Source of the DNA: a virus
Length of the DNA: 62,076 bases
IMG/VR virus record: IMGVR_UViG_3300023235_000025
Direction: 5' to 3' (one strand)
Both the position numbers and the translations under genes were made by a program. Below the pieces are notes generated by a model. That model was not told where the DNA came from, searched no databases, and saw only the letters and a list, made by a program, of their open reading frames with translations. Positions 128 to 62,076 of this stretch are shown here, piece by piece (position 1 is the first letter of the stretch; each line of letters opens with the position of its first letter).

Positions 128-158
128 CAATTTTGACTTGAAGCGGTTTGGTAAATGA
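1..158 (+). CDS. 3' part of a 61-aa hypothetical ORF that starts at 61922 and wraps the junction
   Basis: The frame continues from ATG 61922 through the overlap to TGA 156-158. Confidence 0.5.
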   Translation, partial: SNVKSVENISDEWVDLWQQVELWYGDIQKKETGQQLLERLQSNFDLKRFGK

Positions 159-263
159 ATGCTAACGGTTTGTGTATGAAAAGTAGCCCATACACAGGCG
201 TTCTGAATTATTACAAAACTTAATTAGGCTATTTTTTATACACATTGTTATAAACCGTTTATT

Positions 264-443
264 ATGGATTTTCACGAAAGAAAACAAAAGAGAAAAGAGC
301 ATTTTGAGAAATATGAAAAAGGATGGAAAGATAGACCTTGTGGTGCTTGTAATGGAAGTGGTTATTATGACCATAACGGAAGCCCAAAATGTGGTGCTTG
401 TAATGGCACAGGAAAAGAGAAGTGCAAGTCAAATGGTTTATAA
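264..443 (+). CDS. Small Cys-rich protein with two CxxCxGxG (DnaJ-type zinc-finger) motifs
   Basis: 59-aa ORF below the track cutoff: ...RPCGACNGSGYYDHNGSPKCGACNGTGKEKC... Same strand as its neighbours. It explains the region better than antisense track ORFs 162..374 and 262..477. Confidence 0.6.
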   Translation: MDFHERKQKRKEHFEKYEKGWKDRPCGACNGSGYYDHNGSPKCGACNGTGKEKCKSNGL

Positions 444-579
444 CGTTTAATGTATGGCAAGTAGCCGATTTAAGCACGGAATTTAGTAGATAAACAAATA
501 TTAATAATTAAGCAAATAGTTTCAAAAAGACCCGTAACACGGCTATTTGCTATACATAGTGTTATAGGGCGTTTTTATT

Positions 580-978
580 ATGGTACTTGGATTTAAACCT
601 CAATTTGTAGATAAAATCATTAGCGAAAAGAAACTACATACTATTAGAGAGGATAAGAATAGACGATGGAAAGTAGGTAATGACATCCATTTTGCGACTG
701 GAATTAGAACTAAAAAATACAACCAATTTTATAAAAGCCGTTGTAAAAAAATAGACGAAATTGAAATAATTTGGAACCATCCATTTAGGGCAGACTTCAA
801 TTCAAGTAGTTGCGTAATGATTGATGGTAAAGGATATTTTTCTGTAATTGTAAACGGAAGAAGATTAGGCTATTCAGAAATATCACACTTAGCAAAAAAT
901 GATGGCTTTAATGGTGTAGAAGATTTTGCAGATTGGTTTAATGCAGATTTTATTGGACGTTTAATCCATTGGTTCTAA
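580..978 (+). CDS. Hypothetical protein with weak ASCH-like N-terminus
   Basis: 132-aa ORF. N-terminus KPQFVDKIISEKKLHTIRED resembles ASCH-domain phage proteins, from memory only. Confidence 0.5.
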   Translation: MVLGFKPQFVDKIISEKKLHTIREDKNRRWKVGNDIHFATGIRTKKYNQFYKSRCKKIDEIEIIWNHPFRADFNSSSCVMIDGKGYFSVIVNGRRLGYSEISHLAKNDGFNGVEDFADWFNADFIGRLIHWF

Positions 979-1037
979 TGCCCTATAACGCTAAGGCTAT
1001 GCACTGATTTTTAACGGATTTAAAACACAAAACAAAA

Positions 1038-1286: not shown

Positions 1287-1343
1287 TTGTTGCTAACGTA
1301 TGGTAATAAGATTTGTGGCTTTTCGCCATTAATTTTATTACGT

Positions 1344-1358
1344 GTTACCTACTGGTGC
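1344..1358. repeat. Left inverted repeat GTTACCTACTGGTGC flanking the beta-class MTase gene
   Basis: Pairs with 2267-2281. Confidence 0.85.
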
Positions 1359-1450
1359 GACTTTAAACGCCTAAACTTAATTAATAGAACTGAACCTTTT
1401 TCTTTTCTTTTTTGAGCGTTGGTAAAATTAATTTGATAAAATTAAAATAT

Positions 1451-2266: not shown

Positions 2267-2281
2267 GCACTTGTAGGTAAC
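2267..2281. repeat. Right inverted repeat GCACTTGTAGGTAAC flanking the beta-class MTase gene
   Basis: Starts immediately after the TAA stop. Confidence 0.85.
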
Positions 2282-3105: not shown

Positions 3106-3522
3106 ATGGCAGGAGTTAATAAAGTAATACTATTAGGACATCTCGGTAAAGATCCAGAGGTTAAGCATTTAGAAGGGGATAATGTAGTTGCCAACCTCAC
3201 ACTGGCAACATCCGAATCCTACAAAGATAAGTCGGGTAATAAAGTAGACACTACCGAGTGGCATGATCTGGAACTATGGGACGGTCAGGCCCGGGTGGCA
3301 GAGCAATATTTGAAAAAAGGCAGCCAGATCTATGTGGAGGGTAAGATCAAGACCGATTCTTGGAAAGATGATCAAGGCAACAATCGAAAAAGAACCAAGG
3401 TCAGAGTCATTTCTTTCACCATGCTCGGAGGGGGACAATCTAACCAGTCTACCCCAAGCAAGCCTAAAGAGCCAGACATAAATACTACCACGGACGATGA
3501 GAGTGATGCACTCCCCTTCTGA
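3106..3522 (+). CDS. ssb: Single-stranded DNA-binding protein
   Basis: OB-fold signature NKVILLGHLGKDPE...TEWHDLELWDGQA...IYVEGKI, a Gly/Ser/Pro linker and an acidic C-terminal tip DDESDALPF. Confidence 0.9.
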   Translation: MAGVNKVILLGHLGKDPEVKHLEGDNVVANLTLATSESYKDKSGNKVDTTEWHDLELWDGQARVAEQYLKKGSQIYVEGKIKTDSWKDDQGNNRKRTKVRVISFTMLGGGQSNQSTPSKPKEPDINTTTDDESDALPF

Positions 3523-3523
3523 T

Positions 3524-3907
3524 ATGGCCAAATGGACTAGATCATCTATAAAAAAGAGTATGGTTTCTGGGGAAATCGAGGAGTCATACTCTTTATTTGA
3601 AAAACTACTCACTTCCGAGATAGCAAAACCAGTAAGGGAGTTCATGTTTCATCCTAAAAGAAAGTGGAGATCAGACTTTTCTTATCCAGATATCAAGCTG
3701 GCCATAGAAATCGAAGGTGGGGCGAGAACAAGGGGAAGACATACTAGAGGGCAGGGGTTTATTGATGACATGGAAAAGTATAATGCAATGACCGAGCTAG
3801 GATGGCGATTACTAAGGTTTATTCCCCAGGATTTAACAAAATCCACAACAATAGACCAAATTAAGATATGCTACTCCACTCGTATAGTATTTCTACCGCC
3901 TGTGTAA
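3524..3907 (+). CDS. PD-(D/E)XK endonuclease, Vsr/DUF559-like
   Basis: WRSDFSYPDIKLAIEIEGGARTRGRHTRGQGFIDDMEKYNAMTELGWRLLRF. The ATG at 3524 lies immediately after the ssb stop. Confidence 0.55.
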   Translation: MAKWTRSSIKKSMVSGEIEESYSLFEKLLTSEIAKPVREFMFHPKRKWRSDFSYPDIKLAIEIEGGARTRGRHTRGQGFIDDMEKYNAMTELGWRLLRFIPQDLTKSTTIDQIKICYSTRIVFLPPV

Positions 3908-7073: not shown

Positions 7074-8006
7074 ATGTCCATCAAAGAGCTAGTAAACGAA
7101 ATAAGGAGAAAATTAGTGAATAACGAGCTAACAAAAACCAATGGAACCAAGTATTCAGTTAGGACAGTTTCTTGTTACAATATTATCCTGTCCTCTCTGT
7201 TGGTTATAATGGGCGATTTTGACACTGATTCAGCATCTAAAAAAGATATTGATGCGTGGGTAAATGATATTCGGAGTCAGTTGAGAGATAAGGGCAATGA
7301 ATCTGTCACAGAAAACACTTACATATCGTGCCTGAAATGGGCTATAAACAAAGCCTCAGACGTTCTTGATGTAAATGTAGCTACTAAAGGGTCAGCATGG
7401 TCTAAGCTTCCTGATGATCACCAAATGATAGTCCCTGAGTATTCTCGTGTGATAGGTATGATTAAATCCTTTAAACCTGTGTCCGATCTGCAAGAAAAAG
7501 CATTCAAATACATAAAAGTCGCTGCTTTTACTGGTGCTAGGTACTCGGACATGAAATCATGGACTCATGAGAGGAATATCGTAGGAAATCATTTGGTTTA
7601 TATTCCAAAAAAGACAGGTGGTAAACTCATTAAAATACCCGTGCTCCCATTGTTTGATTTCGGGCAAACGAACTTACTCCCTGGAATACCTTACACCACC
7701 CTATTAAAAGAGGTGAAATCTATATTTAGATTGTCTGGATTTACCAGAGACGTGATACGAGAGAGAGAAGTTGGGAGCGAGAAGGTGTTCGTAAAAAATC
7801 AAGAGTGGGAATTAATGGGGCTTCACAGGCTCAGAGCATCGGCTATAACCGGAATGCTTCAAAATGGAATGACCGAGACAGAAGTAAAGTCATTCTCTGG
7901 GCATTCAATGGATTCTAAATCGTTCAAGAGGTATGTTGACTTAGACCACTCACATTTGGAGGATAAATATAGGGGGTTTATGAGCGGGATGCAGGGGTAT
8001 AGTTAA
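7074..8006 (+). CDS. int: Tyrosine recombinase / phage integrase
   Basis: Box I GARYSDM. C-terminal HRLRASAITGMLQNG...FSGHS...FKRYVD gives the R..H-x-x-R..Y catalytic pattern. Confidence 0.85.
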   Translation: MSIKELVNEIRRKLVNNELTKTNGTKYSVRTVSCYNIILSSLLVIMGDFDTDSASKKDIDAWVNDIRSQLRDKGNESVTENTYISCLKWAINKASDVLDVNVATKGSAWSKLPDDHQMIVPEYSRVIGMIKSFKPVSDLQEKAFKYIKVAAFTGARYSDMKSWTHERNIVGNHLVYIPKKTGGKLIKIPVLPLFDFGQTNLLPGIPYTTLLKEVKSIFRLSGFTRDVIREREVGSEKVFVKNQEWELMGLHRLRASAITGMLQNGMTETEVKSFSGHSMDSKSFKRYVDLDHSHLEDKYRGFMSGMQGYS

Positions 8007-8039: not shown

Positions 8040-8279
8040 ATGAAAACAAACTTTGATAAAATGCGAGAACTAAATAAATCTATTTTAGAGGATGCAGAAA
8101 TTAAAATGCTTCTTGAACAAAAAACCAAACTATTAAACAGGCTTACCCCTAAATACTTGGTCAATAAAGAAACAAATACTGCAACTGCGATACTTGACGA
8201 AAATGAAGTTGAAATGCTGGATAAAATAGATTTATTGGTAAAACACAGAACGGAACAAATTAAAAGGCACTATGCTTAA
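8040..8279 (+). CDS. Hypothetical protein
   Basis: 79-aa ORF. Confidence 0.5.
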   Translation: MKTNFDKMRELNKSILEDAEIKMLLEQKTKLLNRLTPKYLVNKETNTATAILDENEVEMLDKIDLLVKHRTEQIKRHYA

Positions 8280-8449
8280 TTTTTGTTATACGTTGTTATG
8301 TGCTTTTTTAATTGAAGAGTTATTTTAATTTATTTATAACAGCAAAGTATAAGGTTAGTACGCTTTGCACAAACGTTTAAATTAAAGTACTGACCATCAT
8401 AGCGTATTAACTTTATACAATGTTGTACTCTTTTAAAATTACGGATAAA

Positions 8450-8659: not shown

Positions 8660-8733
8660 TTTTTATTGCTACTAAACGCTCGTGGGTATGGTTAGTTGCG
8701 TTGAATGATAACAGGATTTAATAAATAAACGAA

Positions 8734-9045
8734 ATGAAAAAAGCAGAATTTATAAAAATAGTAAGTAAGATTGAAGATACTTTTGAAGATGAATTTAGAG
8801 CAGAATTTAATAGCCCTGAACTTATTTGGGAAGCACTAATAAAGCAATTAACTATACCCGTTGTTGTGAAATCGTTGCCACAGGATAACTTTTGCATAGT
8901 ATGCAACTTACCAACGGATGGCGAAAAGTGTTATAGTAAGCGATGCCCTGTATATTGGCTATGTTTTACAACTCGTTTATTAACGTATTACGCTTTTTCA
9001 CACCTAAAAAAATCATTTTTAAATTTCAATAGAAAATATCAATGA
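8734..9045 (+). CDS. Hypothetical protein; last 26 codons are encoded by the 80-bp repeat module
   Basis: 103-aa ORF. The C-terminus ...FTTRLLTYYAFSHLKKSFLNFNRKYQ lies inside repeat 8968-9047. Confidence 0.5.
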   Translation: MKKAEFIKIVSKIEDTFEDEFRAEFNSPELIWEALIKQLTIPVVVKSLPQDNFCIVCNLPTDGEKCYSKRCPVYWLCFTTRLLTYYAFSHLKKSFLNFNRKYQ

Positions 9046-9047
9046 TA
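8968..9047 (+). repeat. 80-bp exact direct repeat, copy A
   Basis: Identical to 60735-60814, checked base by base. Includes the ATGATA start of the downstream ORF. Confidence 0.95.
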
Positions 9048-9408: not shown

Positions 9409-9976
9409 ATTCACAATAGATTACCCGATGCTCCAGGATGATAAAATCAGGCACGGAACGTTAGTTCTTCACGATTTTAAAGACATCAAGCCGGAATGGA
9501 AGCTTATTCTTCATGGAAAAGTGATTCACAGTCCAGTATCTAAGAAGCACAAGGATTTAAAAAAAGGAGATACCATTTATTTCCATTACCTAGAGGCTGA
9601 CGAAGACAATATGATGGATGGAATGCTATTTGTCGACGCTTTGAAAGTATTCTGCTATGTGAGAGACGGGGTTATTCACACGTATAATGATTTTGTTTTA
9701 ACTGTTCCTGCCTATCCTGAAAACACTCAAAAAATAGACGTGGACGGAAAAGAGATAACTGCATTCGTTGGGAAGTCTGGTTTAGTCGAAAAAATAGACA
9801 TCGAGCACAGTAAGAACCTTACGAGAGTTCTTCACTGTGATGATAACACATTAGGGCTTAATCCGGATGATGTGGTTATAATGAGAAAAAGTAGTGACCA
9901 ATTCTATAAAATCGAAGGTAGGGATATGTTTCCTATTCCAGAGAGGGATATTGTAGGTAAGTATTCAAAATGGTAA
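9392..9976 (+). CDS. Hypothetical protein
   Basis: 194-aa ORF. Confidence 0.55.
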   Translation: MRSINKFTIDYPMLQDDKIRHGTLVLHDFKDIKPEWKLILHGKVIHSPVSKKHKDLKKGDTIYFHYLEADEDNMMDGMLFVDALKVFCYVRDGVIHTYNDFVLTVPAYPENTQKIDVDGKEITAFVGKSGLVEKIDIEHSKNLTRVLHCDDNTLGLNPDDVVIMRKSSDQFYKIEGRDMFPIPERDIVGKYSKW

Positions 9977-10043
9977 CACAAAGATAAAATCCGTTTCAAT
10001 GGCTTTTATCAACTGTTATAAATATTCAACTTAAATAAAAACA

Positions 10044-10214: not shown

Positions 10215-10395
10215 GGATGAATTGCAAAGGCTGTGTGGTGGCTAATGCACTACAACGTTGAGTATAAAAATTGAAGCCGTAAAAAGGCAGTAAGATTGAG
10301 TTAAAAAATAAGTTAATTAACAGACAAAGGCTTTTAAATTAAGCACCTTAACAGGCTTTTGTTTTTATACATTGTTAGGGTGCGTTTTTTTTTAT

Positions 10396-16300: not shown

Positions 16301-19300
16301 ATAAGGCTTTTTCAGACAAATTTAAATTGGACTTTCTTTCTCCTATTTCATTTAAGATTGATTCATACTCATTAAACACCTCATTAGGCACTATTTTTGG
16401 GTTTAATTTAAGCATTCTGTCCAGTGGGCTATTTGGAGATAATGTTCCAATTCTACCTTTTTTAACATTATTTTTAGCTGTAGCAATCTTAGATCTAGCT
16501 CCTTTTAACCTCTTTCTTGTTCCAGACTTAGCTATTACGTCAAAAATAGCATCAATAGCCTTATTGACTGATCTTTCTGTTTTGGCTTTGTTTAATTCAG
16601 TAACTATTTTGTTTATTTCGGACTTAGTAAAATCATCAAGAGGAGTGTCTTTTATATCATCTTTCACAAATTTGGTTACAATATTTTTCATTGCCTGAAC
16701 CTTATCTGATTTGTCCTTGGCTTTTTTACTAGCAACTTTTACTCCCTCTTTAAAACCTTCTTTTGCTGCTTTAACCCTGCTCCTGAGATCTTTTTTCATC
16801 TCGTTATACTCATTTACAGATGTGTCTTTTTCTTTTGATGGCTTTCCCTCAGTGGATTCCTTTATCTGCTGCTTGATAGATAACGGCTTTGCTTCTTTTT
16901 TTCTGGATTTAAGGGGTATTCCTTTGGTATCCTTTTTAGTTTCTGACAATCTAAATTTGCTAATACCTTCTATAGATTCATTATTTGGATTGCTTTTTGA
17001 CAAGTTATATATGTAAGATGACTTTATAGCATCAAAGTTTTCTATAAGTTTCTCTGACCCTATGTTATCTCTTATCCATTCTACTAATTGCTCAAATGTA
17101 TTAATTCCAAGTTTACCTGCTTTAACTATTATTTTACCAGCTATAGCTAATTGATCAGGAGAAACGCCACCAGACGTAAGATTATTTTTTCCAGCATCAA
17201 AAAAATCACTAAATAGATTAGTTATTTCTTCTTTAATTTCTTTTGATTTTTTTGATAGATCTTTCTTTTTTGGCTGTGTTTTTTCTGTTTTAGTGTTTTT
17301 ACTGTCAGTCAACTCTACAATATTATCAACCATTGCAGCAGGATATCTTCCTCTGTCTGGTGATTCTACAGACCCATCTTCATTAAGCCTACCTTCTATG
17401 AATTCCCCGAATAAAGTAAATCCTATTTTTGGCCTGGCGTCTTCCTTTTCAATTTTAGTTTCTTCGGGGATTACTTCCTCTGTTTTTTCAGGAATAATCT
17501 CTATTTTAACCTTTTCCTTGGGTTCTTTTTGAGGAACTTCTGGCTCTGGTATTTGCTCATCTTTAGACTGTTTCGACTGTTTAACTTCTTGCTTCTCTTG
17601 GTTCTTTAATTCGTAATCAGCTAATGATTTCGGCACAGTCACCCTTATTATTTCTTCTCCCTTATCATTTGTCCCCCTTGATGATACCCTATCTTTGAAA
17701 ACATCAGGGATTTCATCCTCTTTATTATAGGTGAATGTTACAAGATCTCCATTTATAGCTTCCTCATACTGCTGTTCATCTGATGGTTTGTCTACCTGAA
17801 CTTGTTCACTAACTCCTTCAACATCGGATTTTTCTCCACCATTTTCATTAACAGGAAGTTCCTTTCCTTCACCGTCTTGGCTATCTGCTGGTTTTGCTTC
17901 ATTCTCGGGTTCAATGATTGGTTCATCTTCTTTAGTGATTTCTTTTTTCTTTGCGACAACCGAGTAGTCAGTTTCAGCGTATGGGTCAGATTTGTTTGTG
18001 TTGTCAACTATCGAAAACTCCATGTTAGGGTATTTCTCAGACAATGCATCCACCTTAGAGTTAGCTTCTGCTTCACTCATCCCTTCCTCTACTGCCTCAA
18101 TAGTCCCGTCAGGGTTTTCAATAAAGTCCATTTCAGACTCATTTACTTGTAGTTTTTTAACACTGGTATTCTCTAAGTTTTCTACGCTCTCTTTTTTAGC
18201 TTCTTTTTTCTTTGCGACAACAAAGTAGCCAGTCTCAGCGTATGGGTCAGATTTGTTTGTGTTGTCAACTATCGAAAACTCCATGTTAGGGTATTTTTCA
18301 GACAATGCATCCACCTTAGAGTTAGCTTCTGCTTCACTCATCCCTTCCTCTACTGCCTCAATAGTCCCATCAGGCATTTCTATAAAGTCCATTTCGGACT
18401 CATTTACTTGTAGTGTTATAACACTGGTATTCTCTAAGTTTTCTACGCTCTCTTTTAATGATTCATTATTCTGATCAATGGATTTTATTTTTGACTCGAG
18501 CTCTTTTATAGACTTGTCTATAATATCCTTATTGGCGCCAGAGAAATTCCCTCTTCTTTTTGTTAGTGCGCTCATAGCGGTATTCATCAAGAAGCCTACC
18601 GTTCCGCCTATAGCGCCTTCCTCACCTACGCCATCAAGTATTTCCCTGTTGAAATCATAAATTCTTTGAGCTGACATATTAGCAAAGGTTGCTTGCCACA
18701 TCTCAGTAACCGCTTCCTCCGTAAACCCTACAGCTCCATCCTTGACTACGCTTAATATTTTGGCCCCGGGTTCTATTTTCTTGATCCTAGAGAACATACT
18801 TTGAACTGGAAGAGACTCCATTACAGATCCTACGATAAAGTTTTCTATGGCATATTGAAGAGCCTCGTCTTCTGTGGCCCCTGATTCAATAGCCTCTTTA
18901 TACATTGGTGCAGCCATTTGAGAACCGCCTATCAACCCCTGTTTAGAACCTACTCTGCTCAATACTTCTTTTCCTGCTTTTATATAAGGAGTTAGTTTTG
19001 TACCTTTAATTAGAGCTGTTTTTACTAATTGAGCGGTGCCCGATTGCCCTCCGGTTAAAACCATTGGTACTATTTGCCCTAATCCGGCAACTACCCCGCC
19101 TCCAAAAGTCTGTTCATCCCCTTCATTTACAGGGTAAAGCTCTTCTGTAAACTTCCTCCAATCGTCCGCTATTTTAAACGTTCCTATATCAGACGCTTTC
19201 AGCTCTTTATTTGCAGGTTTTCCAATAACAGGAACATTAGCTAATTGTCTCTCTGTAAAAGCACTAGCGATAGCCCACGCTTCTAATATGTCTGCTGGAG

Positions 19301-30982: not shown

Positions 30983-32526
30983 ACCCCTTCTTGTTCTAAT
31001 GATACATGAACTATTTCTTCACCTACTGTTTTATCCAATAGGATGAAGCAAAAGAAATTAGGTACTGTTGTGCTAATATTGACAGGATTAAACATTAAAA
31101 CCGCTTCTGAACCAAATGTAAAAGCACAGGCATCTATGTGTTTCATATAAGTAGTGGTTCCTCTTTTTGCATCCGTAAAGTCAAAGGTTATATTGCCTGT
31201 TATTGCTGTTGTGTCTATCCCCGAAATGTAATCAACATCAAATAATACTACTGAGCTTTCTCTGTTATCTGGCTCTCGTATAGCTATTAATGCACTTGCC
31301 TCTGCTTCACTTGCCTTTGTTGTCGCTATCCCTGCCTGAGTTGTGGCTGTGGATGCACTTGTGCCAGCGTTAGTTTCAGAAGTTGAAGCATTTGAAGCAC
31401 TTGTTGAAGCCTCCCCTGCTTTTGTTGTCGCTATCCCTGCCTGAGTTGTGGCTGTGGATGCACTTGTACCAGCGTTAGTTTCAGAAGTTGAAGCATTTGA
31501 AGCACTTGTTGAAGCCTCCCCTGCTTTTGTTGTCGCTATCCCTGCCTGAGTAGTAGCTGTTGTTGCGCTAGTATCCGCCTCACCTGCTTGCGTTGTCGCT
31601 ATCCCAGCTTGCGTTGTGGCGGTAGATGCTGAATTTGAAGCGGTAGTTGCGCTTGCGTCTGCCGAGATTGCTGAATTAATGGCCTCTAAATCTAATTCTG
31701 TGATTAATACATATATTTCATCTATTTCTTTTTTTACCGCAGAAGCTTCGCTTAGCACTCCCCCTCCCCAATTTGCTGTTAGCTGAGTGTATAAAGACGT
31801 TACCATGAAGTAGTCGTCCATTAACTCCCTCTGATTACCTTTAGAATTACTTAGCTTGTCTTTTACGTCATTAATTAAATTAACTAACTCAGAAACCGAA
31901 ATAAAAGCTCTAACATCAAAGCTAAAAGACTTTGATTGAATCCACTCTACACTATGGTCTGATGCTGTAAATAATACTGTAGAGGTTAATTCAGGCAGGT
32001 AGACGCCCTCGTAGGATTTACCTCCTGAAAGCATAAATATCTCGTTGGACGTAGTGGATATTACCTCTGTAACTCCTGATGATTCCGGAAAAGAGCATTC
32101 TACCTCCCTTGTTACGCTAGGGTTATACCCCTCATTAATATACTTAGTAACATCTAAGAATGATATGCTCGGAGTTGCTAAATTAGAATTATCACTCATG
32201 GCGAGTGACGGCTCAGAGAATGAAAGAGTGAACACCTTTTCTAACTCATAATCCCCTATATTCGTGTATGTTTTTTGAGTAATTGAATATTCACCCTGGA
32301 TTATTCCTTGTCTCAACCTCAAAGGAATAGAAGTTATTGCGTTTCCATTGCTAAAATCTGGGTTATTTTCATCAGTATTTTCAACAACAACCCCATCAGG
32401 GTAGATTATTCTATACTGTCCGTAATAAGTAGTTACACCAGAATAATTAGAAGTGTCTGTCAACACAAGACTTAACTCGTTACTAACTCTATCGATTAGG
32501 AATTTTATACTAAATTGTGGAGTCAC
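30979..32526 (-). CDS. Tail-fibre-like protein with Ala/Thr/Ser-rich 35-aa tandem repeats
   Basis: The unit [35 protein letters not shown] recurs. Confidence 0.7.
31321..31640. repeat. 105-bp tandem repeats (about 3 units) within the fibre gene
   Basis: Units start at 31321, 31426 and 31531, with a degenerate unit at 31594. Confidence 0.9.
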
Positions 32527-41367: not shown

Positions 41368-41384
41368 ATACCTACTGCTTTCTA

Positions 41385-41392
41385 CAAATATA
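41385..41392 (-). promoter_or_regulatory. -7 box TATATTTG (TAnnTTTG) for the structural operon
   Basis: Reverse complement of caaatata. Lies 17 nt upstream of the terL ATG. Confidence 0.5.
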
Positions 41393-41415
41393 GTAGGAAT
41401 GTTTAGAATTATAAT

Positions 41416-41423
41416 TATATTTG
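41416..41423 (+). promoter_or_regulatory. -7 box TATATTTG for the plus-strand arm
   Basis: Exact TAnnTTTG match in the divergent intergenic region. Confidence 0.5.
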
Positions 41424-41918: not shown

Positions 41919-42194
41919 ATGAAGCGAAAAAAAATACCTGAATGGGAACACATAACCGACTATAGACCATTTGAAAGAAAAACCTATGAGTTTGATTTTA
42001 GCCTTGGAAATGATAGAGATGGAACTACACATTTTAAGCCAACAGATATAAGAGGTGAAAGATTGGCTGCATTAAATTACGCTCGTGAAATAGTAATAGA
42101 CCCTTGTAACTCTAAATGGCTCGAAAGAAGAAAATTAACAGACTCTTTTCAAATGGGCGTTGAATATGCTAGACGTTACTTAAATAATGGCTAA
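41919..42194 (+). CDS. Hypothetical protein
   Basis: 91-aa ORF. Its stop codon lies inside a GCTAACG box. Confidence 0.5.
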   Translation: MKRKKIPEWEHITDYRPFERKTYEFDFSLGNDRDGTTHFKPTDIRGERLAALNYAREIVIDPCNSKWLERRKLTDSFQMGVEYARRYLNNG

Positions 42195-42200
42195 CGAATA

Positions 42201-42235
42201 GCTATAAGAGCCGTTTTTTCAATGGCTTTTATAGC
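42201..42235 (+). other. 12-bp hairpin preceding the left inverted repeat of the Dcm cassette
   Basis: GCTATAAGAGCC, an 11-nt loop, then GGCTTTTATAGC (11 of 12 pairs). Confidence 0.7.
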
Positions 42236-42237
42236 GT

Positions 42238-42252
42238 GTTACCTGCTGGTGC
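42238..42252. repeat. Left inverted repeat GTTACCTGCTGGTGC flanking the C5-MTase gene
   Basis: Pairs with 43456-43470. The same motif flanks the MTase at 1451..2266. Confidence 0.85.
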
Positions 42253-43456: not shown

Positions 43457-43470
43457 CACTTGCAGGTAAC
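43456..43470. repeat. Right inverted repeat GCACTTGCAGGTAAC flanking the C5-MTase gene
   Basis: Starts at the last base of the stop codon. Reverse complement is GTTACCTGCAAGTGC. Confidence 0.85.
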
Positions 43471-43512
43471 TGCTGGGTGTATGGTTAGTGCGACTTAATT
43501 AAAATAAATATT

Positions 43513-43761
43513 ATGAAAGGAATGACAGATTGGAATAAACTTACAATGGAACAGTACATTGAACATTTGGAAGAGAAATTTAAGTTTGATTCAAGCGGTA
43601 CAGCAAAAGCCGTATTTGAATTGATAGCAGGATATAGAGCATTAACTATACAACGTGTTAGCGTTATGTTGTGTGGCTCTTTTGACGCTGACCTTAGTAC
43701 AAGCAGTGCAACTAAATGTAAATGCGGACGTGAAAAATGGGAACACCCTAAAGCCACATAA
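43513..43761 (+). CDS. Hypothetical protein
   Basis: 82-aa ORF. Confidence 0.5.
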   Translation: MKGMTDWNKLTMEQYIEHLEEKFKFDSSGTAKAVFELIAGYRALTIQRVSVMLCGSFDADLSTSSATKCKCGREKWEHPKAT

Positions 43762-43844
43762 TTGTTGCTAACTCGTTTATAAACGCATTACACAATTCAA
43801 CACATCAAAAAATCAAATCTTAAATTCAATAGAAAAACCAGATG
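43761..43844 (+). repeat. Diverged third copy of the 80-bp upstream module
   Basis: attgttgctaactcgtttataaacgcattacac...cttaaattcaatagaaaaaccagATG aligns with 8968-9047 and 60735-60814 at roughly 70% identity by eye. Confidence 0.6.
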
Positions 43845-44564
43845 GCTTTAAAATTCAGTACAATAAACCACGATTACAGAAAAGAGAACAATATTTCATG
43901 CAACGAATATGTGTTGTGTGACATGATTTATTTTCTTTCAAGACATCCAAACTCAAAACATCCAGGATGGTGCTATATGTCCCGACAGAGGATGGCAGAT
44001 GAAATGGGAGTGTCAAAGGTGGCTACCATAGGAATGATTTCTAGATCGGAAGAAAAAGGGCTAGTTTACAAAGACCCTGACACTAAGTTTTTAAAAACTA
44101 CTTCCAAATGGAATGAATGTTATGGATTACCTGATTTAAAAGACTCGGTAAAGAAAGTTAACCAGCAATCGGTAAAGAAACTTAACCGAGGTGGTAAAGA
44201 AAGTTTACCGATTATCGGTAAAGAAAGTTTACCCTATATTAAAGATATTAATATTAATAATGATATAAAGCAAATTTCTAATGAGAAATCTTTGGAAGAA
44301 ATTGAAAAAGAGAAGCACAATGACATTTTCAGGTCAATGTTCTCCAGTCAGATGTGGATAGAATCGCTCTCTATGAGGTGGAAAAAGAATGTAAAAGAGG
44401 TTCAAGCACACGTAGATGTATTTAGAAGGGATTGTATTGATAAAGGGGATTACAAAAAGACAGAAAAGGACGCCAAATCACACTTTGTTAATTGGACAGA
44501 GAAAGTAAGCCCTATCTCATCGGTAACTAAAAGAGTAATATTTAAAGGAAATAACAATGAGTAA
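43842..44564 (+). CDS. Putative replication initiator (winged-helix N-terminus) containing the iteron array
   Basis: 240 aa. wHTH-like MSRQRMADEMGVSKVATIGMISRSEEKGLV. Lies directly upstream of and overlaps dnaB. Internal peptide repeats are encoded by the iterons. Confidence 0.6.
   Translation: MALKFSTINHDYRKENNISCNEYVLCDMIYFLSRHPNSKHPGWCYMSRQRMADEMGVSKVATIGMISRSEEKGLVYKDPDTKFLKTTSKWNECYGLPDLKDSVKKVNQQSVKKLNRGGKESLPIIGKESLPYIKDININNDIKQISNEKSLEEIEKEKHNDIFRSMFSSQMWIESLSMRWKKNVKEVQAHVDVFRRDCIDKGDYKKTEKDAKSHFVNWTEKVSPISSVTKRVIFKGNNNE
44146..44233. repeat. Four 18-bp iterons YGGTAAAGAAASTTWACC
   Basis: Copies start at 44146, 44170, 44192 and 44216 (spacings 24/22/24). Copies 3 and 4 are palindromic, GGTAAA-N5-TTTACC. 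An AT-rich tract follows at 44234-44290. Confidence 0.85.
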
Positions 44565-52483: not shown

Positions 52484-52540
52484 CTCTTAATATTTGGCCT
52501 GACTTGGTATGTGAGGTGGAGGTAAGGGTTTTCGGGCATA

Positions 52541-53697: not shown

Positions 53698-53707
53698 TAA
53701 TATTTGC

Positions 53708-53740
53708 CCAGGCTCTCTTCGGAGGGCTTGGCTTTTTCTT
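53708..53740 (+). terminator. Intrinsic terminator with UUCG tetraloop
   Basis: CCAGGCTCTC-ttcg-GAGGGCTTGG (10 pairs including 2 G-U), followed by CTTTTTCTT. Confidence 0.75.
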
Positions 53741-54817: not shown

Positions 54818-54970
54818 ATGTCCTTACATTTGGCCGGATTTAGTGTATAACCACCCATAAAGTATTTTTGCCGTTCGTGTATTACAATTTTCAAACATTA
54901 AAACTTATGCCTATATTTAGATTCAATTAAGTACTACACAAACAAACAAACAAACTAAAATCAAATACCT

Positions 54971-57890: not shown

Positions 57891-57982
57891 TTCACAAACT
57901 CCCTACGGTATAACCGTGGTATTTGATTACAATAGGGAGCAAAGCCATATTTGGCCTGAACTAAAATTTAAACAAAACAACC

Positions 57983-58805: not shown

Positions 58806-58826
58806 GGATTTATAAACTTAAAAATT

Positions 58827-59521: not shown

Positions 59522-59657
59522 CAATTACCTCCAACGGTTTGGCTATGGTGCTGTGTTTTTGTTTTTCACAAAAATATGCACTATGATCCGTTGTTACCTG
59601 CTTTGTTTTATTTTTTTAGGGAGGGTTTTATTTATTTTAATATTTTTTACTTAAACG

Positions 59658-59689: not shown

Positions 59690-59725
59690 TTGGGTGATTA
59701 ATTTATAAACTTAAAGAAAAATACA

Positions 59726-60318: not shown

Positions 60319-60534
60319 TAAAATATTGTGCCTAACGTCCGACAGCTTGTAGGAGTGGCTGTAATTTAAACACTCCTTTTATTTCAATCGCTGATAAGCC
60401 ATTCTTACAAGGTGGTGTTATCAGATGGTTTATATAATTTTGATTCTCATGAATTACGATATTTTAAAAACCAAAACAATTGGGAATAGTGAAAAATGCT
60501 TTTACTGCGGTATTAATAGATAAATAACAATAAA

Positions 60535-60734: not shown

Positions 60735-60814
60735 ACAACTCGTTTATTAACGTATTACGCTTTTTCACACCTAAAAAAATCATTTTTAAATTTCAATAGA
60801 AAATATCAATGATA
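60735..60814 (+). repeat. 80-bp exact direct repeat, copy B
   Basis: Identical to 8968-9047. Confidence 0.95.
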
Positions 60815-61778: not shown

Positions 61779-61825
61779 AAGAAGAGGTTGTGGTATTACT
61801 AGCAAAATATTGTGGCTAACGGCAA

Positions 61826-61897
61826 GAATAAGGCAATGTAGCCCGCCTGACAAGTGGCTATGAAACACAACGCTGATTCGGGCTATTTGCTTTATTC
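61826..61897 (+). other. Long imperfect hairpin (11 + 7 bp stems)
   Basis: GAATAAGGCAA pairs with TTGCTTTATTC, and TAGCCCG pairs with CGGGCTA, enclosing a 33-nt loop. Confidence 0.7.
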
Positions 61898-61921
61898 AGT
61901 GTTGGCATTTCGTTTTAAGTA

Positions 61922-62076
61922 ATGGCACAAGACACAAGAAATTTAAAATTATCAAACGTAAAATCAGTTGAAAATATATCTGACGAGTGGGTTGATTTGT
62001 GGCAACAAGTTGAGTTATGGTATGGAGACATTCAGAAAAAAGAGACTGGACAGCAGCTATTGGAAAGGCTTCAATC
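61922..62076 (+). CDS. 5' part of the wrap-around 61-aa hypothetical ORF
   Basis: ATG at 61922. Continues in frame into 1..158. Confidence 0.5.
   Translation, partial: MAQDTRNLKLSNVKSVENISDEWVDLWQQVELWYGDIQKKETGQQLLERLQ
61950..62076. repeat. Terminal overlap, identical to 1-127
   Basis: Same comparison as for 1-127. Confidence 0.95.

Follow-up and report, generated by a model that had tools for sequence, protein, structure and literature searches.

What lies between the small genes of the phage genome in IMG/VR virus record IMGVR_UViG_3300023235_000025, and what it does there, is the question addressed here. The window, by which we mean the whole stretch of 62,076 nucleotides (nt), is a complete, circularly assembled phage genome of 61,949 bp, with bases 1-127 recurring at 61950-62076. 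In its small-gene regions the genes are separated by related modules, each with a box behind a stop codon, a hairpin, and a TATACAnnGTTRTA box ahead of the next ATG. The original prediction, made from the sequence of the window alone, suggested that the second box, with its fixed spacing to start codons, could be a promoter specific to the phage or else an RNA operator, and compared the layout with the cassettes that shuffle small genes in T4-type phages. The gene-shuffling idea is supported by our analysis and the promoter idea is unsupported; the boxes are most likely not promoters. We put the probability at roughly 75% that the modules are attC-like recombination sites, folded on one strand, which bound mobile single-gene cassettes.

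Folding of each intergenic region showed that the post-stop box (..GCTAACG) and the pre-ATG box (TATAC-n-TGTTR) are complementary arms of one long hairpin. This base-pairing of the two boxes with each other was not part of the original prediction. In the basal helix (P1), ..TAACG behind the stop codon pairs with TGTTA ahead of the ATG. After an unpaired spacer of 4-7 nt follows the second helix (P2), formed for instance by the 5' arm GTGTATGAAAAGTAGCC with GGCTATTTTTTATACAC. TATACA thus closes the 3' arm, and GTTRTA forms the return strand of P1. A site consists of an inverse core (R'') ending in AAC, a spacer, a stem beginning G-T-A-T, a variable tip, a return arm ending in ..TATAC, a spacer of 1-4 nt and the core (R'), (T)GTT(R). 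The tip ranges from 11 to ~170 nt and may contain the start of the next open reading frame (ORF). AAC..GTT is found at the hairpin base in every folded copy, and G.T pairs are kept at stem positions 7 and 12. The window holds ~12-15 copies, all on the gene strand (Table 1, where they are designated M1 to M15); only M3 among them has a bulged base.

A structure alignment was made of 19 copies of the ~125-nt class, taken from the window, three other phages and six bacterial genomes. RNAalifold gave 16 pairs in the stem, and at 11 of these both bases had changed in a compensatory way. With P1 included, 93.7% of cells were paired as compared to 80.2% in shuffles, and none of 500 shuffles reached the observed value. 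Changes on both sides were seen at 13 pairs, against 3-5 when the partner columns were slid. The arms differ between copies, as first noted, and the changes are compensatory (for example, GAAAAG/TTTTTT vs GGCAAG/TTTGCT). AAC/GTT is invariant and paired in 19/19 aligned copies and is present in all window copies. One position is a G.U (G.T on DNA) in 19/19 aligned copies, and a second G.T mismatch is found in 7/19 (~1/3). A covariance model built from these 19 copies (R1) detected nine window copies on the + strand only, with E = 1e-27 to 0.16; scores were 51-127 bits on the + strand, and the corresponding - strand positions scored 19-28 bits. A descriptor scan, whose background at the threshold used is ~2-3 matches per strand per 62 kb, added the long-range copies M10 and M8, the tips of which hold an ORF start and ~45 codons.

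The 3' arm of M8, GCATTAACTATACAAC followed by G and TGTTA, lies within ORF 43513-43761, the start of which is in the tip. The 3' arm of M10 is translated as ..LTIPVVV.., and the same arm sequence is read in another frame in proteins of Tenacibaculum phage JQ. Within the ~190-nt class, ORFs differ in how they read the same 3' arm DNA, some giving ..LTIPVV.. and others ..INNRCCC... Because the arm is read in two frames, its conservation acts at the nucleic-acid level and not at the protein level, and protein-coding conservation of the 3' box ('LTIPVV') was ruled out. A miniature inverted-repeat transposable element or a repetitive extragenic palindrome-like dispersed repeat was ruled out as well, both by the co-oriented arrays, one of them annotated beside a recombinase, and by stems that covary instead of keeping a single terminal-repeat sequence.

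The stretches between the sites have self-complementary ends: the sequence following GTT in one site pairs with that preceding AAC in the next. In the window, runs of 14, 13, 10, 9 and 9 consecutive pairs were found, so that 5 of 11 adjacent site pairs reach at least 9. Only 4 of 157 non-adjacent combinations reach 9, and extension within the same site is typically 3-6 pairs with a maximum of 8. The run of 14 pairs surrounds a gene for 59 amino acids (aa), which has no Pfam match and whose flanks GTTATAAACC (247-256) and GGTTTATAAC (435-444) are perfect complements. The ASCH-domain-like cassette that follows, with GTTATAGGGC...GCCCTATAAC around its gene, closes in an orphan inverse core, TGCCCTATAAC (979-989), which is complementary over 13 pairs to GTTATAGGGCG (561-571) behind M2. 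Homology of this cassette to another phage contig stops exactly at AAC; contigs of that kind lack the upstream hairpin, so this boundary is mildly informative. Pairing of 9-15 bp was found around both methyltransferase genes. The R' extension of M6, GTTACCTACTGGTGCG, pairs over 9 or more bases with the inverse core at the end of the N6/N4-methyltransferase cassette, and R' of M7, GTTACCTGCTGG, pairs with CTTGCAGGTAAC at 43459-43470. Phages JQ, Gundel_1, phi19:3 and phi13:2 follow the same rule. At 25-363 of JQ, an unannotated ORF of ~113 aa (MGFRSTIVSEHYSG...) lies between two sites, and its ends GTTAGGGTGC and GCACCCTAAC are perfectly complementary. Complementary cassette ends are the classical signature of integron cassettes, in which crossover at the core parts a cassette's own core from its inverse core.

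The sites of the window form one array at ~58.6-62 kb that runs on into 0-2.3 kb and another at 8.2-10.4 kb, in addition to the two methyltransferase cassettes. In these two arrays at least two co-oriented sites lie within a few kb and no integron-type integrase is nearby, which is how clusters of attC sites lacking integron integrases (CALIN) are defined. The window phage thus resembles a carrier of CALIN-like, integrase-less arrays.

Homologous modules are intergenic and on the gene strand in Tenacibaculum phages JQ and Gundel_1, Cellulophaga phages phi46:3, phi19:3, phi13:2 and phi18:1, and Polaribacter phage P12002S. In Flavobacteriaceae phages of this kind, modules 73-93% identical stand between unrelated genes, which agrees with the proposal that related structured modules separate small genes. 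Phage JQ gave 16 descriptor-scan matches on the gene strand and 2 on the other, in size classes of ~55, 125 and 190 nt. By BLAST, M4 is 93.5% identical to an intergenic site of Gundel_1. M5 is 92% identical to a JQ site and has near-identical copies in Lutibacter and Leeuwenhoekiella chromosomes, and M6 resembles a site of P12002S. Nucleotide matches of the window to known phages are confined to such short intergenic modules (92-93% identity, JQ and Gundel_1); because these are modules of Tenacibaculum phages, the host is probably a marine member of Flavobacteriaceae.

Bacterial chromosomes carry the same family. An exact 25-nt pattern from the M5-type 3' arm matched seven bacterial assemblies, all Bacteroidota and including Lutibacter aestuarii and Leeuwenhoekiella blandensis MED217, and was also found in 19 viral contigs. 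R1 matches with E≤1e-5 were present in 101 of 121 sampled Flavobacteriaceae genomes (83%), with counts per genome that should often be read as 'at least'. The bacterial copies cluster as co-oriented arrays of up to ~20 sites in 20 kb. Their strand differs from that of the phage copies. In bacteria the sites are opposite to the strand of the flanking ORFs by 109:6 (16 loci, 14 genomes), whereas phage sites are on the coding strand by 64:7 in all (39:5 in isolates and 25:2 in independent viral contigs).

Natural cassette variants were found among ten Polaribacter Freya isolates (MT732463-MT732472 records), whose genomes range from 43,978 to 48,920 bp. We compared Freya_1, 2, 5, 8 and 10, with flanks 98-100% identical. 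Immediately upstream of a Xer/IntI-like integrase gene these phages have between 0 and 12 small genes, and the blocks by which they differ (842, 1,744, 4,040 and 4,942 bp) all lie just upstream of that gene. In the Freya_10 array, the alignment endpoints coincide with the AAC of R1-type sites at 477, 1319, 2221 and 5419. The junctions of Freya_1 and Freya_5 were read directly: each joins the left flank of one site to the right flank of another, and the AAC triplet alone is shared. The sites joined differ immediately left of AAC (gtttac / gttacc / gttgct) and immediately right of it. Freya_2 and Freya_8 have alignment endpoints at the same triplets. The integrase-proximal junction is AAC|ACCCCTATAAC, and the junctions place the crossover with the resolution of the triplet, not of a single phosphodiester bond. 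Because the crossovers of Freya_1 and Freya_5 are confined to 3 nt, homologous recombination between loose repeats is disfavoured. Judged by these sequences, the Freya array looks like a working phage-borne cassette platform.

The one annotated bacterial array, in Lutibacter, starts next to an HU-like gene and a gene for a tyrosine recombinase of 395 aa that has a SAM-like and a catalytic domain. The recombinase shares 33% identity with IntI1 and 31% with the Freya integrase. Against the integron-integrase model TIGR02249 of NCBIfam (cut-off 265), the Lutibacter recombinase scored 199 bits and the Freya integrase 96 bits, each in two stretches; the best matches of both are Xer-type models, and neither appears to have the extra domain specific to IntI. 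The Lutibacter enzyme therefore looks Xer-like, with a match to the integron-integrase model that is not continuous. On both platforms the folded strand of the sites runs towards the recombinase gene. The second gene at the head of the Lutibacter array (3297-3698 of that locus) encodes a DNA-binding protein of the HU-HIG family and lies between the recombinase and the first cassette; its product is a possible accessory factor for folding or synapsis of the sites.

No Xer/IntI-type recombinase was found in the window. It encodes a divergent tyrosine recombinase (Table 1) of a rare family, with 10 relatives in the protein collection and none in other site-bearing phages. When this protein was compared with the Lutibacter recombinase and the Freya integrase, only the catalytic motif aligned. 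The phage's own tyrosine recombinase was ruled out as the cognate integrase because it is unrelated to the array recombinases and absent from other site-bearing phages; the window's arrays, being CALIN-like, would thus depend on a recombinase supplied in trans.

The likeness to attC sites is extensive. Like them, the modules are imperfect hairpins formed by a single strand. The R box at the base contains conserved AAC/GTT, a central spacer without pairing separates it from a second paired box (L), the terminal structure varies, non-Watson-Crick marks have fixed places, and structure is kept over sequence. Sites and small ORFs alternate one to one; the ORFs have a short leader and mostly no promoter, and their stop codons are often part of the inverse core (TAA of ..TAAC). 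The cassette ends are complementary, and the crossover is at the AAC/GTT core (G|TT, or AA|C on the folded strand). As with integrons and CALIN, the arrays occur with or without an adjacent tyrosine recombinase. There are also differences. The strand marks are conserved G.T mismatches instead of extrahelical bases, of which they could be a functional analogue. In attC it is the bottom strand that folds, and the bacterial arrays agree with this; the phage copies fold on the coding strand, so that each hairpin moves together with the ORF behind it. Stems are rich in A and T, and the sites come in discrete size classes of ~55, ~90, ~125 and ~190 nt. The linked recombinases are Xer-like and below the integron-integrase cut-off, and the Freya integrase is downstream of its array and co-oriented with it.

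We propose that strand exchange by a Xer/IntI-like tyrosine recombinase would take place within the AAC triplet at the 5' base of the folded strand, in line with attC, whose bottom strand folds and is cut at AA|C. Because the folded strand is the coding strand in phages, a phage cassette would consist of hairpin, GTT, short leader, ORF and inverse core AAC. For the window phage, the recombinase might be supplied by the host or by a co-infecting phage.

Two earlier descriptions touch on this system; our literature searches turned up only these, and none of the Flavobacteriaceae system as such. A CALIN with two methyltransferase cassettes has been predicted in Polaribacter phage P12002L (PMC9892861, 2023), and the primer sequence of its attC1 site (TGCTAACGGCTACGGCTAAACGG...CCGTTTTAGCCATTGTTAGGCG) has exactly the architecture of the window sites. 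In gut Bacteroidales, a XerD-like tyrosine recombinase heads a co-oriented array of small accessory genes, rAID-1, and the authors called the intergenic repeats 'reminiscent of integrons' (Ross et al., 10.1101/471110). By that description rAID-1 is set apart, since it concerns immunity genes in chromosomes of gut Bacteroidales, and the text read does not report a site structure, a crossover point or phage copies. Features are also shared with other sites of Xer-family recombinases. Two short arms around an unpaired or short central region are found in dif, pdif and the attP of CTX phage; in CTX phage a folded single strand creates the site, and pdif modules bracket genes with inversely oriented sites. 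Neither an array layout nor covariation of a hairpin is known from dif modules. The 3' box may bear a weak resemblance to the XerD arm of dif.

Several points weigh against the attC-like interpretation. Six of the 11 adjacent site pairs of the window lack clear pairing of their ends. The recombinase of the window is outside the family that adjoins such sites elsewhere, and phage JQ has sites and no annotated recombinase. A search for a close relative of the window phage, in which cassette gain or loss might be seen, gave only one contig, ~70% identical. P12002L_attC1 was the one site without a verified junction with IntI1 in the attC x attI1 assay in Escherichia coli, and the less typical attC2 of the same phage did give a product (PMC9892861); the failure of attC1 could mean that a different recombinase is needed, or that there is no activity. 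For the window itself, recombination at sites that are still active, single-stranded DNA as the substrate and the identity of the acting recombinase are inferred. An additional RNA-level effect in phages is possible; there is room for it because the phage sites are on the coding strand and their mRNA would have the fully paired G.U form.

That an RNA-level role is the whole explanation seems unlikely to us. The hairpins would act in polycistronic early mRNA as RNase III-type processing sites, partial terminators, stabilisers or translational insulators, and mosaicism would be a by-product. Such elements would be expected on the coding strand, as found in both phage isolates and viral contigs; the conserved non-Watson-Crick positions are G.U on that strand and would be tolerated by an RNA helix; and the sites lie between stop and start codons, several of them followed by T-runs. 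Integron attC sites themselves have been reported to affect expression of downstream cassettes, which makes a secondary RNA effect plausible. However, the bacterial arrays are antisense to their flanking ORFs, so no well-pairing mRNA hairpin would form there, and ribosomes would unfold the ~190-nt copies, which enclose coding sequence. The invariant AAC/GTT, the self-complementary cassette ends and the exact AAC junctions of the Freya phages are left unexplained. Searches against Rfam 15 gave no match at gathering thresholds, and up to E 10 only microRNA precursors and unrelated small RNAs or leaders matched, all at chance level; no known RNA family or tRNA was found to account for the modules.

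Less probable still are passive homology patches, by which stem-loops would supply short homology for general or relaxed recombination with no dedicated recombinase and no fixed crossover. The precedent is the promoter early stem-loop (PeSL), defined as a sigma-70 early promoter with a terminator-like stem-loop and exchanged via homologous recombination. In T4-type phages, small early genes are reportedly flanked by shared modules of this kind, which are associated with modular shuffling (the PeSL study of Arbiol et al. in 2010). The comparison with T4-type cassettes survives in that portable gene-shuffling cassettes, with related stem-loop modules around small early genes, are common to several phages here; it fails in that no host-type early promoter is coupled to the stem-loop, that the AAC/GTT core is invariant and exchange is exact at 3 nt, and that the same sites form bacterial arrays. 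Modules so similar between unrelated genes of unrelated phages could serve as homology patches, several site-bearing phages have general recombination genes (for example, RecT in phi19:3), and the window phage and JQ lack a cognate recombinase. Against this stand the 3-nt crossover of Freya_1 and Freya_5 with flanks that differ on both sides, the Xer/IntI-like recombinases that head the Lutibacter array and adjoin the Freya array, and the stem covariation, conserved mismatch positions and invariant core, which point to a structure-specific protein.

The boxes of the original prediction were all found where it had placed them or a few bases away. The post-stop box ATTGTKGCTAACG, with up to 2 mismatches, has 8 matches vs 2.3 expected, and none of 100 shuffles reached 8; five of its six + strand matches are directly behind stop codons, at the positions first listed. 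As for the TATACAnnGTTRTA box, the rigid 14-mer TATACANNGTTRTA by itself is not enriched (with up to 1 mismatch, 3 matches vs 0.95 expected, with 5 of 100 shuffles reaching 3), because the spacing between the box halves varies. The flexible form TATAC-N1-4-TGTT is enriched: the + strand has 10 matches and the - strand 2, where shuffles average 2.6, and half of the + strand matches are in + strand intergenic DNA, which makes up 7.6% of the genome. The distances of the four copies to their ATGs were confirmed as 27, 29, 36 and 30 nt. A fixed distance does not hold as a general rule, since the 3' arms of M8 and M10 are within ORFs; it is explained by the short GTT-to-ATG stretch, which is the cassette leader and measures 17-29 nt in most window copies. 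The box at 8287-8299, correctly described as having no ORF downstream, lies in the weak site M14.

No TAnnTTTG of the Bacteroidota type, a consensus that the box does not fit according to the original prediction, and no -33 TTTG was found within the modules; generic sigma-70-type promoter matches were at chance level only, and no RNA polymerase or sigma factor common to the module-bearing phages was identified. Promoters of a crAss-like virion RNA polymerase were considered in view of an ORF of 2183 aa, for which Pfam returned only a sub-threshold match. It is thus very improbable that TATACAnnGTTRTA forms the centre of a middle or late promoter, or of an operator, specific to the phage: its intergenic enrichment, strand specificity and four spaced copies would suit it, but the box is the hairpin return arm plus the GTT core, occurs within ORFs with no ATG downstream, lies in bacteria on the strand opposite to the downstream gene, and has neither promoter elements nor a shared polymerase to go with it.

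If the modules are attC-like sites, a broader reading suggests itself, towards which we lean by a small margin over even odds. Marine Flavobacteriaceae and their phages would share one large integron-like capture system, hitherto undescribed as such, with AAC/GTT sites of ~55-190 nt and Xer-like recombinases without the IntI domain; the phage arrays would be flipped, virulent phages would use host recombinases, and the Freya series would be a snapshot from a single bloom. The two platforms examined suggest a possible explanation of the strand asymmetry: sites would have a fixed polarity with respect to the integrase/attI end, and the source of transcription would set the direction of the ORFs. 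Transcription would run away from attI in chromosomes and towards attI in phage operons. The flipped phage arrays would then keep the polarity of their sites, and their ORFs would point towards attI and be expressed by read-through of phage operons. With the help of host recombinases, virulent phages could exchange early genes and genes that counter restriction, the two methyltransferases among them, cassette by cassette.

Mosaicism of accessory 'early' regions in phages is usually explained by rare illegitimate recombination or by homologous recombination of a relaxed kind. In this marine phage, small genes would be bounded by precise, structured sites of the integron type, common to the chromosomes of the host family. 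To our knowledge, the phylum Bacteroidota is generally regarded as being without integrons; integron-like gene capture would be extended to this phylum and to virulent phages, and would give phages a route to anti-restriction methyltransferases and other small genes. The Freya isolates, with Xer-like recombinases and defined sites, offer directly testable systems. Annotations of these phages need re-reading where an ORF is called from a start within a 190-nt site or a motif is labelled a 'promoter'.

Table 1. Sites, cassette genes and related features of the window
Feature	Positions	Strand	Sequence elements	Support and remarks
Site M1	160..257	+	R'' inverse core ..GCTAAC 161-166 (AAC 164-166); spacer GGTTT; 5' arm GTGTATGAAAAGTAGCC 171-187; variable tip; 3' arm GGCTATTTTTTATACAC 227-243; spacer AT; R' core TGTTA (GTT 247-249)	R1 69 bits, E=6e-14; stem 17-19 bp; G.T at stem positions 7 and 12
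Cassette gene, 59 aa	264..443	+		CxxCxGxG zinc-finger-like repeats
Site M2 (~125-nt class)	438..571	+	AAC 442-444; stem ATGTATGGCAAGTAGCC / GGCTATTTGCTATACAT; GTT 561-563	R1 108.7 bits, E=2e-23; fold
ASCH-domain-like cassette	580..989	+	gene 580-978	homologs named ASCH
Site M6 (short hairpin)	1291..1361	+	AAC 1295-1297; GTT 1344-1346	R1 33.7 bits
Inverse core (R'')	2267..2281	+	GCACTTGTAGGTAAC	closes N6/N4-methyltransferase cassette (gene 1451-2266)
Divergent tyrosine recombinase	7074..8006	+		weak Pfam and NCBIfam matches
Weak or degenerate site M14 (tentative)	8179..8302	+		R1 16.8 bits, E=0.16; scan 14 pairs
Site M4	8334..8432	+	AAC 8338-8340; stem GTATAAGGTTAGTACGC / GCGTATTAACTTTATAC; GTT 8422-8424	R1 50.9 bits
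Site M10 (~190-nt class)	8675..8865	+	21-pair stem	descriptor scan; encloses start of ORF 8734-9045
Short site M15 (weak, tentative)	9975..10017	+	GGTAAC; stem GATAAAATCC/GGCTTTTATC; TGTTAT	scan 11 pairs
Site M5 (~125-nt class)	10250..10384	+	AAC 10254-10256; GTT 10374-10376; R' GTTAGGGTGCG	R1 126.6 bits, E=1e-27
Site M7 (short hairpin)	42189..42248	+		R1 20.3 bits; fold; ahead of cytosine-methyltransferase cassette
Site M8 (~190-nt class)	43468..43659	+	5' arm GGTGTATGGTTAGTGC, intergenic	descriptor scan, 15 pairs
15-mer	58808-58822 and 59701-59715	+	ATTTATAAACTTAAA	in cassette leaders, 5 and 11 nt ahead of ATGs
Probable site M11 (tentative)	59533..59598	+	CCAACGG; long stem; CCGTTGTTACC	RNAfold -25 kcal/mol; without R1 detection
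Site M12	60330..60427	+	GCCTAAC 60330-60336; 17-bp stem; GTT 60417-60419	R1 21.8 bits, E=0.011
Site M3	61814..61911	+	AAC 61818-61820; stem GAATAAGGCAA(T)GTAGCCCG / CGGGCTATTTGCTTTATTC, one bulged T; GTT 61901-61903	R1 36 bits, E=4e-6; R' pairs with M1 R'' over 10 pairs

Some further features of the sites and leaders were noted. The 15-mer ATTTATAAACTTAAA has exactly two occurrences, as first described, and both copies are downstream of GTT-type cores (GTTGTAGG.. and GTTGGGTG..). ORFs 8734-9045 and 43513-43761 begin in the variable tip of ~190-nt sites and continue through the 3' arm. The parts of these two ORFs that are C-terminal to the site are unrelated or shuffled, and the C-terminus of 43513 resembles that of JQ 1549-1785; either these ORFs encode chimeric proteins made at the site, or their start codons were mis-called. 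An exact 80-bp repeat at 8968-9047 and 60735-60814 ends in ATGATA and has a third copy at 43768-43847 with 70% identity. It starts with ..ACAACTCG, near an AAC-type inverse core, and may be a further type of cassette boundary.

The genome has a GC content of 36.9%. Structural genes, including those for portal, terminase and tail proteins, occupy the - strand at 12.4-41.4 kb, and small genes, replication genes and methyltransferase genes are on the + strand in the remaining regions. Between the terminase operon and the + strand genes, at 41380-41420, divergent TATATTTG (TAnnTTTG) boxes are found on both strands and are likely host-type promoters driving both arms of the genome. In the small-gene region at 51.6-58 kb, a motif ATATTTGGCC(T/C)G(A/G) recurs at 52494-52510, 53703-53718, 54824-54840 and 57955-57970 (approximate positions). 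It partly overlaps TAnnTTTG-like -7 boxes and belongs to a module family distinct from the hairpin sites. Two of the structural genes contain in-frame tandem repeats, with units of 105 nt (3-4 copies) at 31282-31659 and of 261 nt (two copies, 93% identical) at 17929-18450, the latter within the ORF of 2183 aa.

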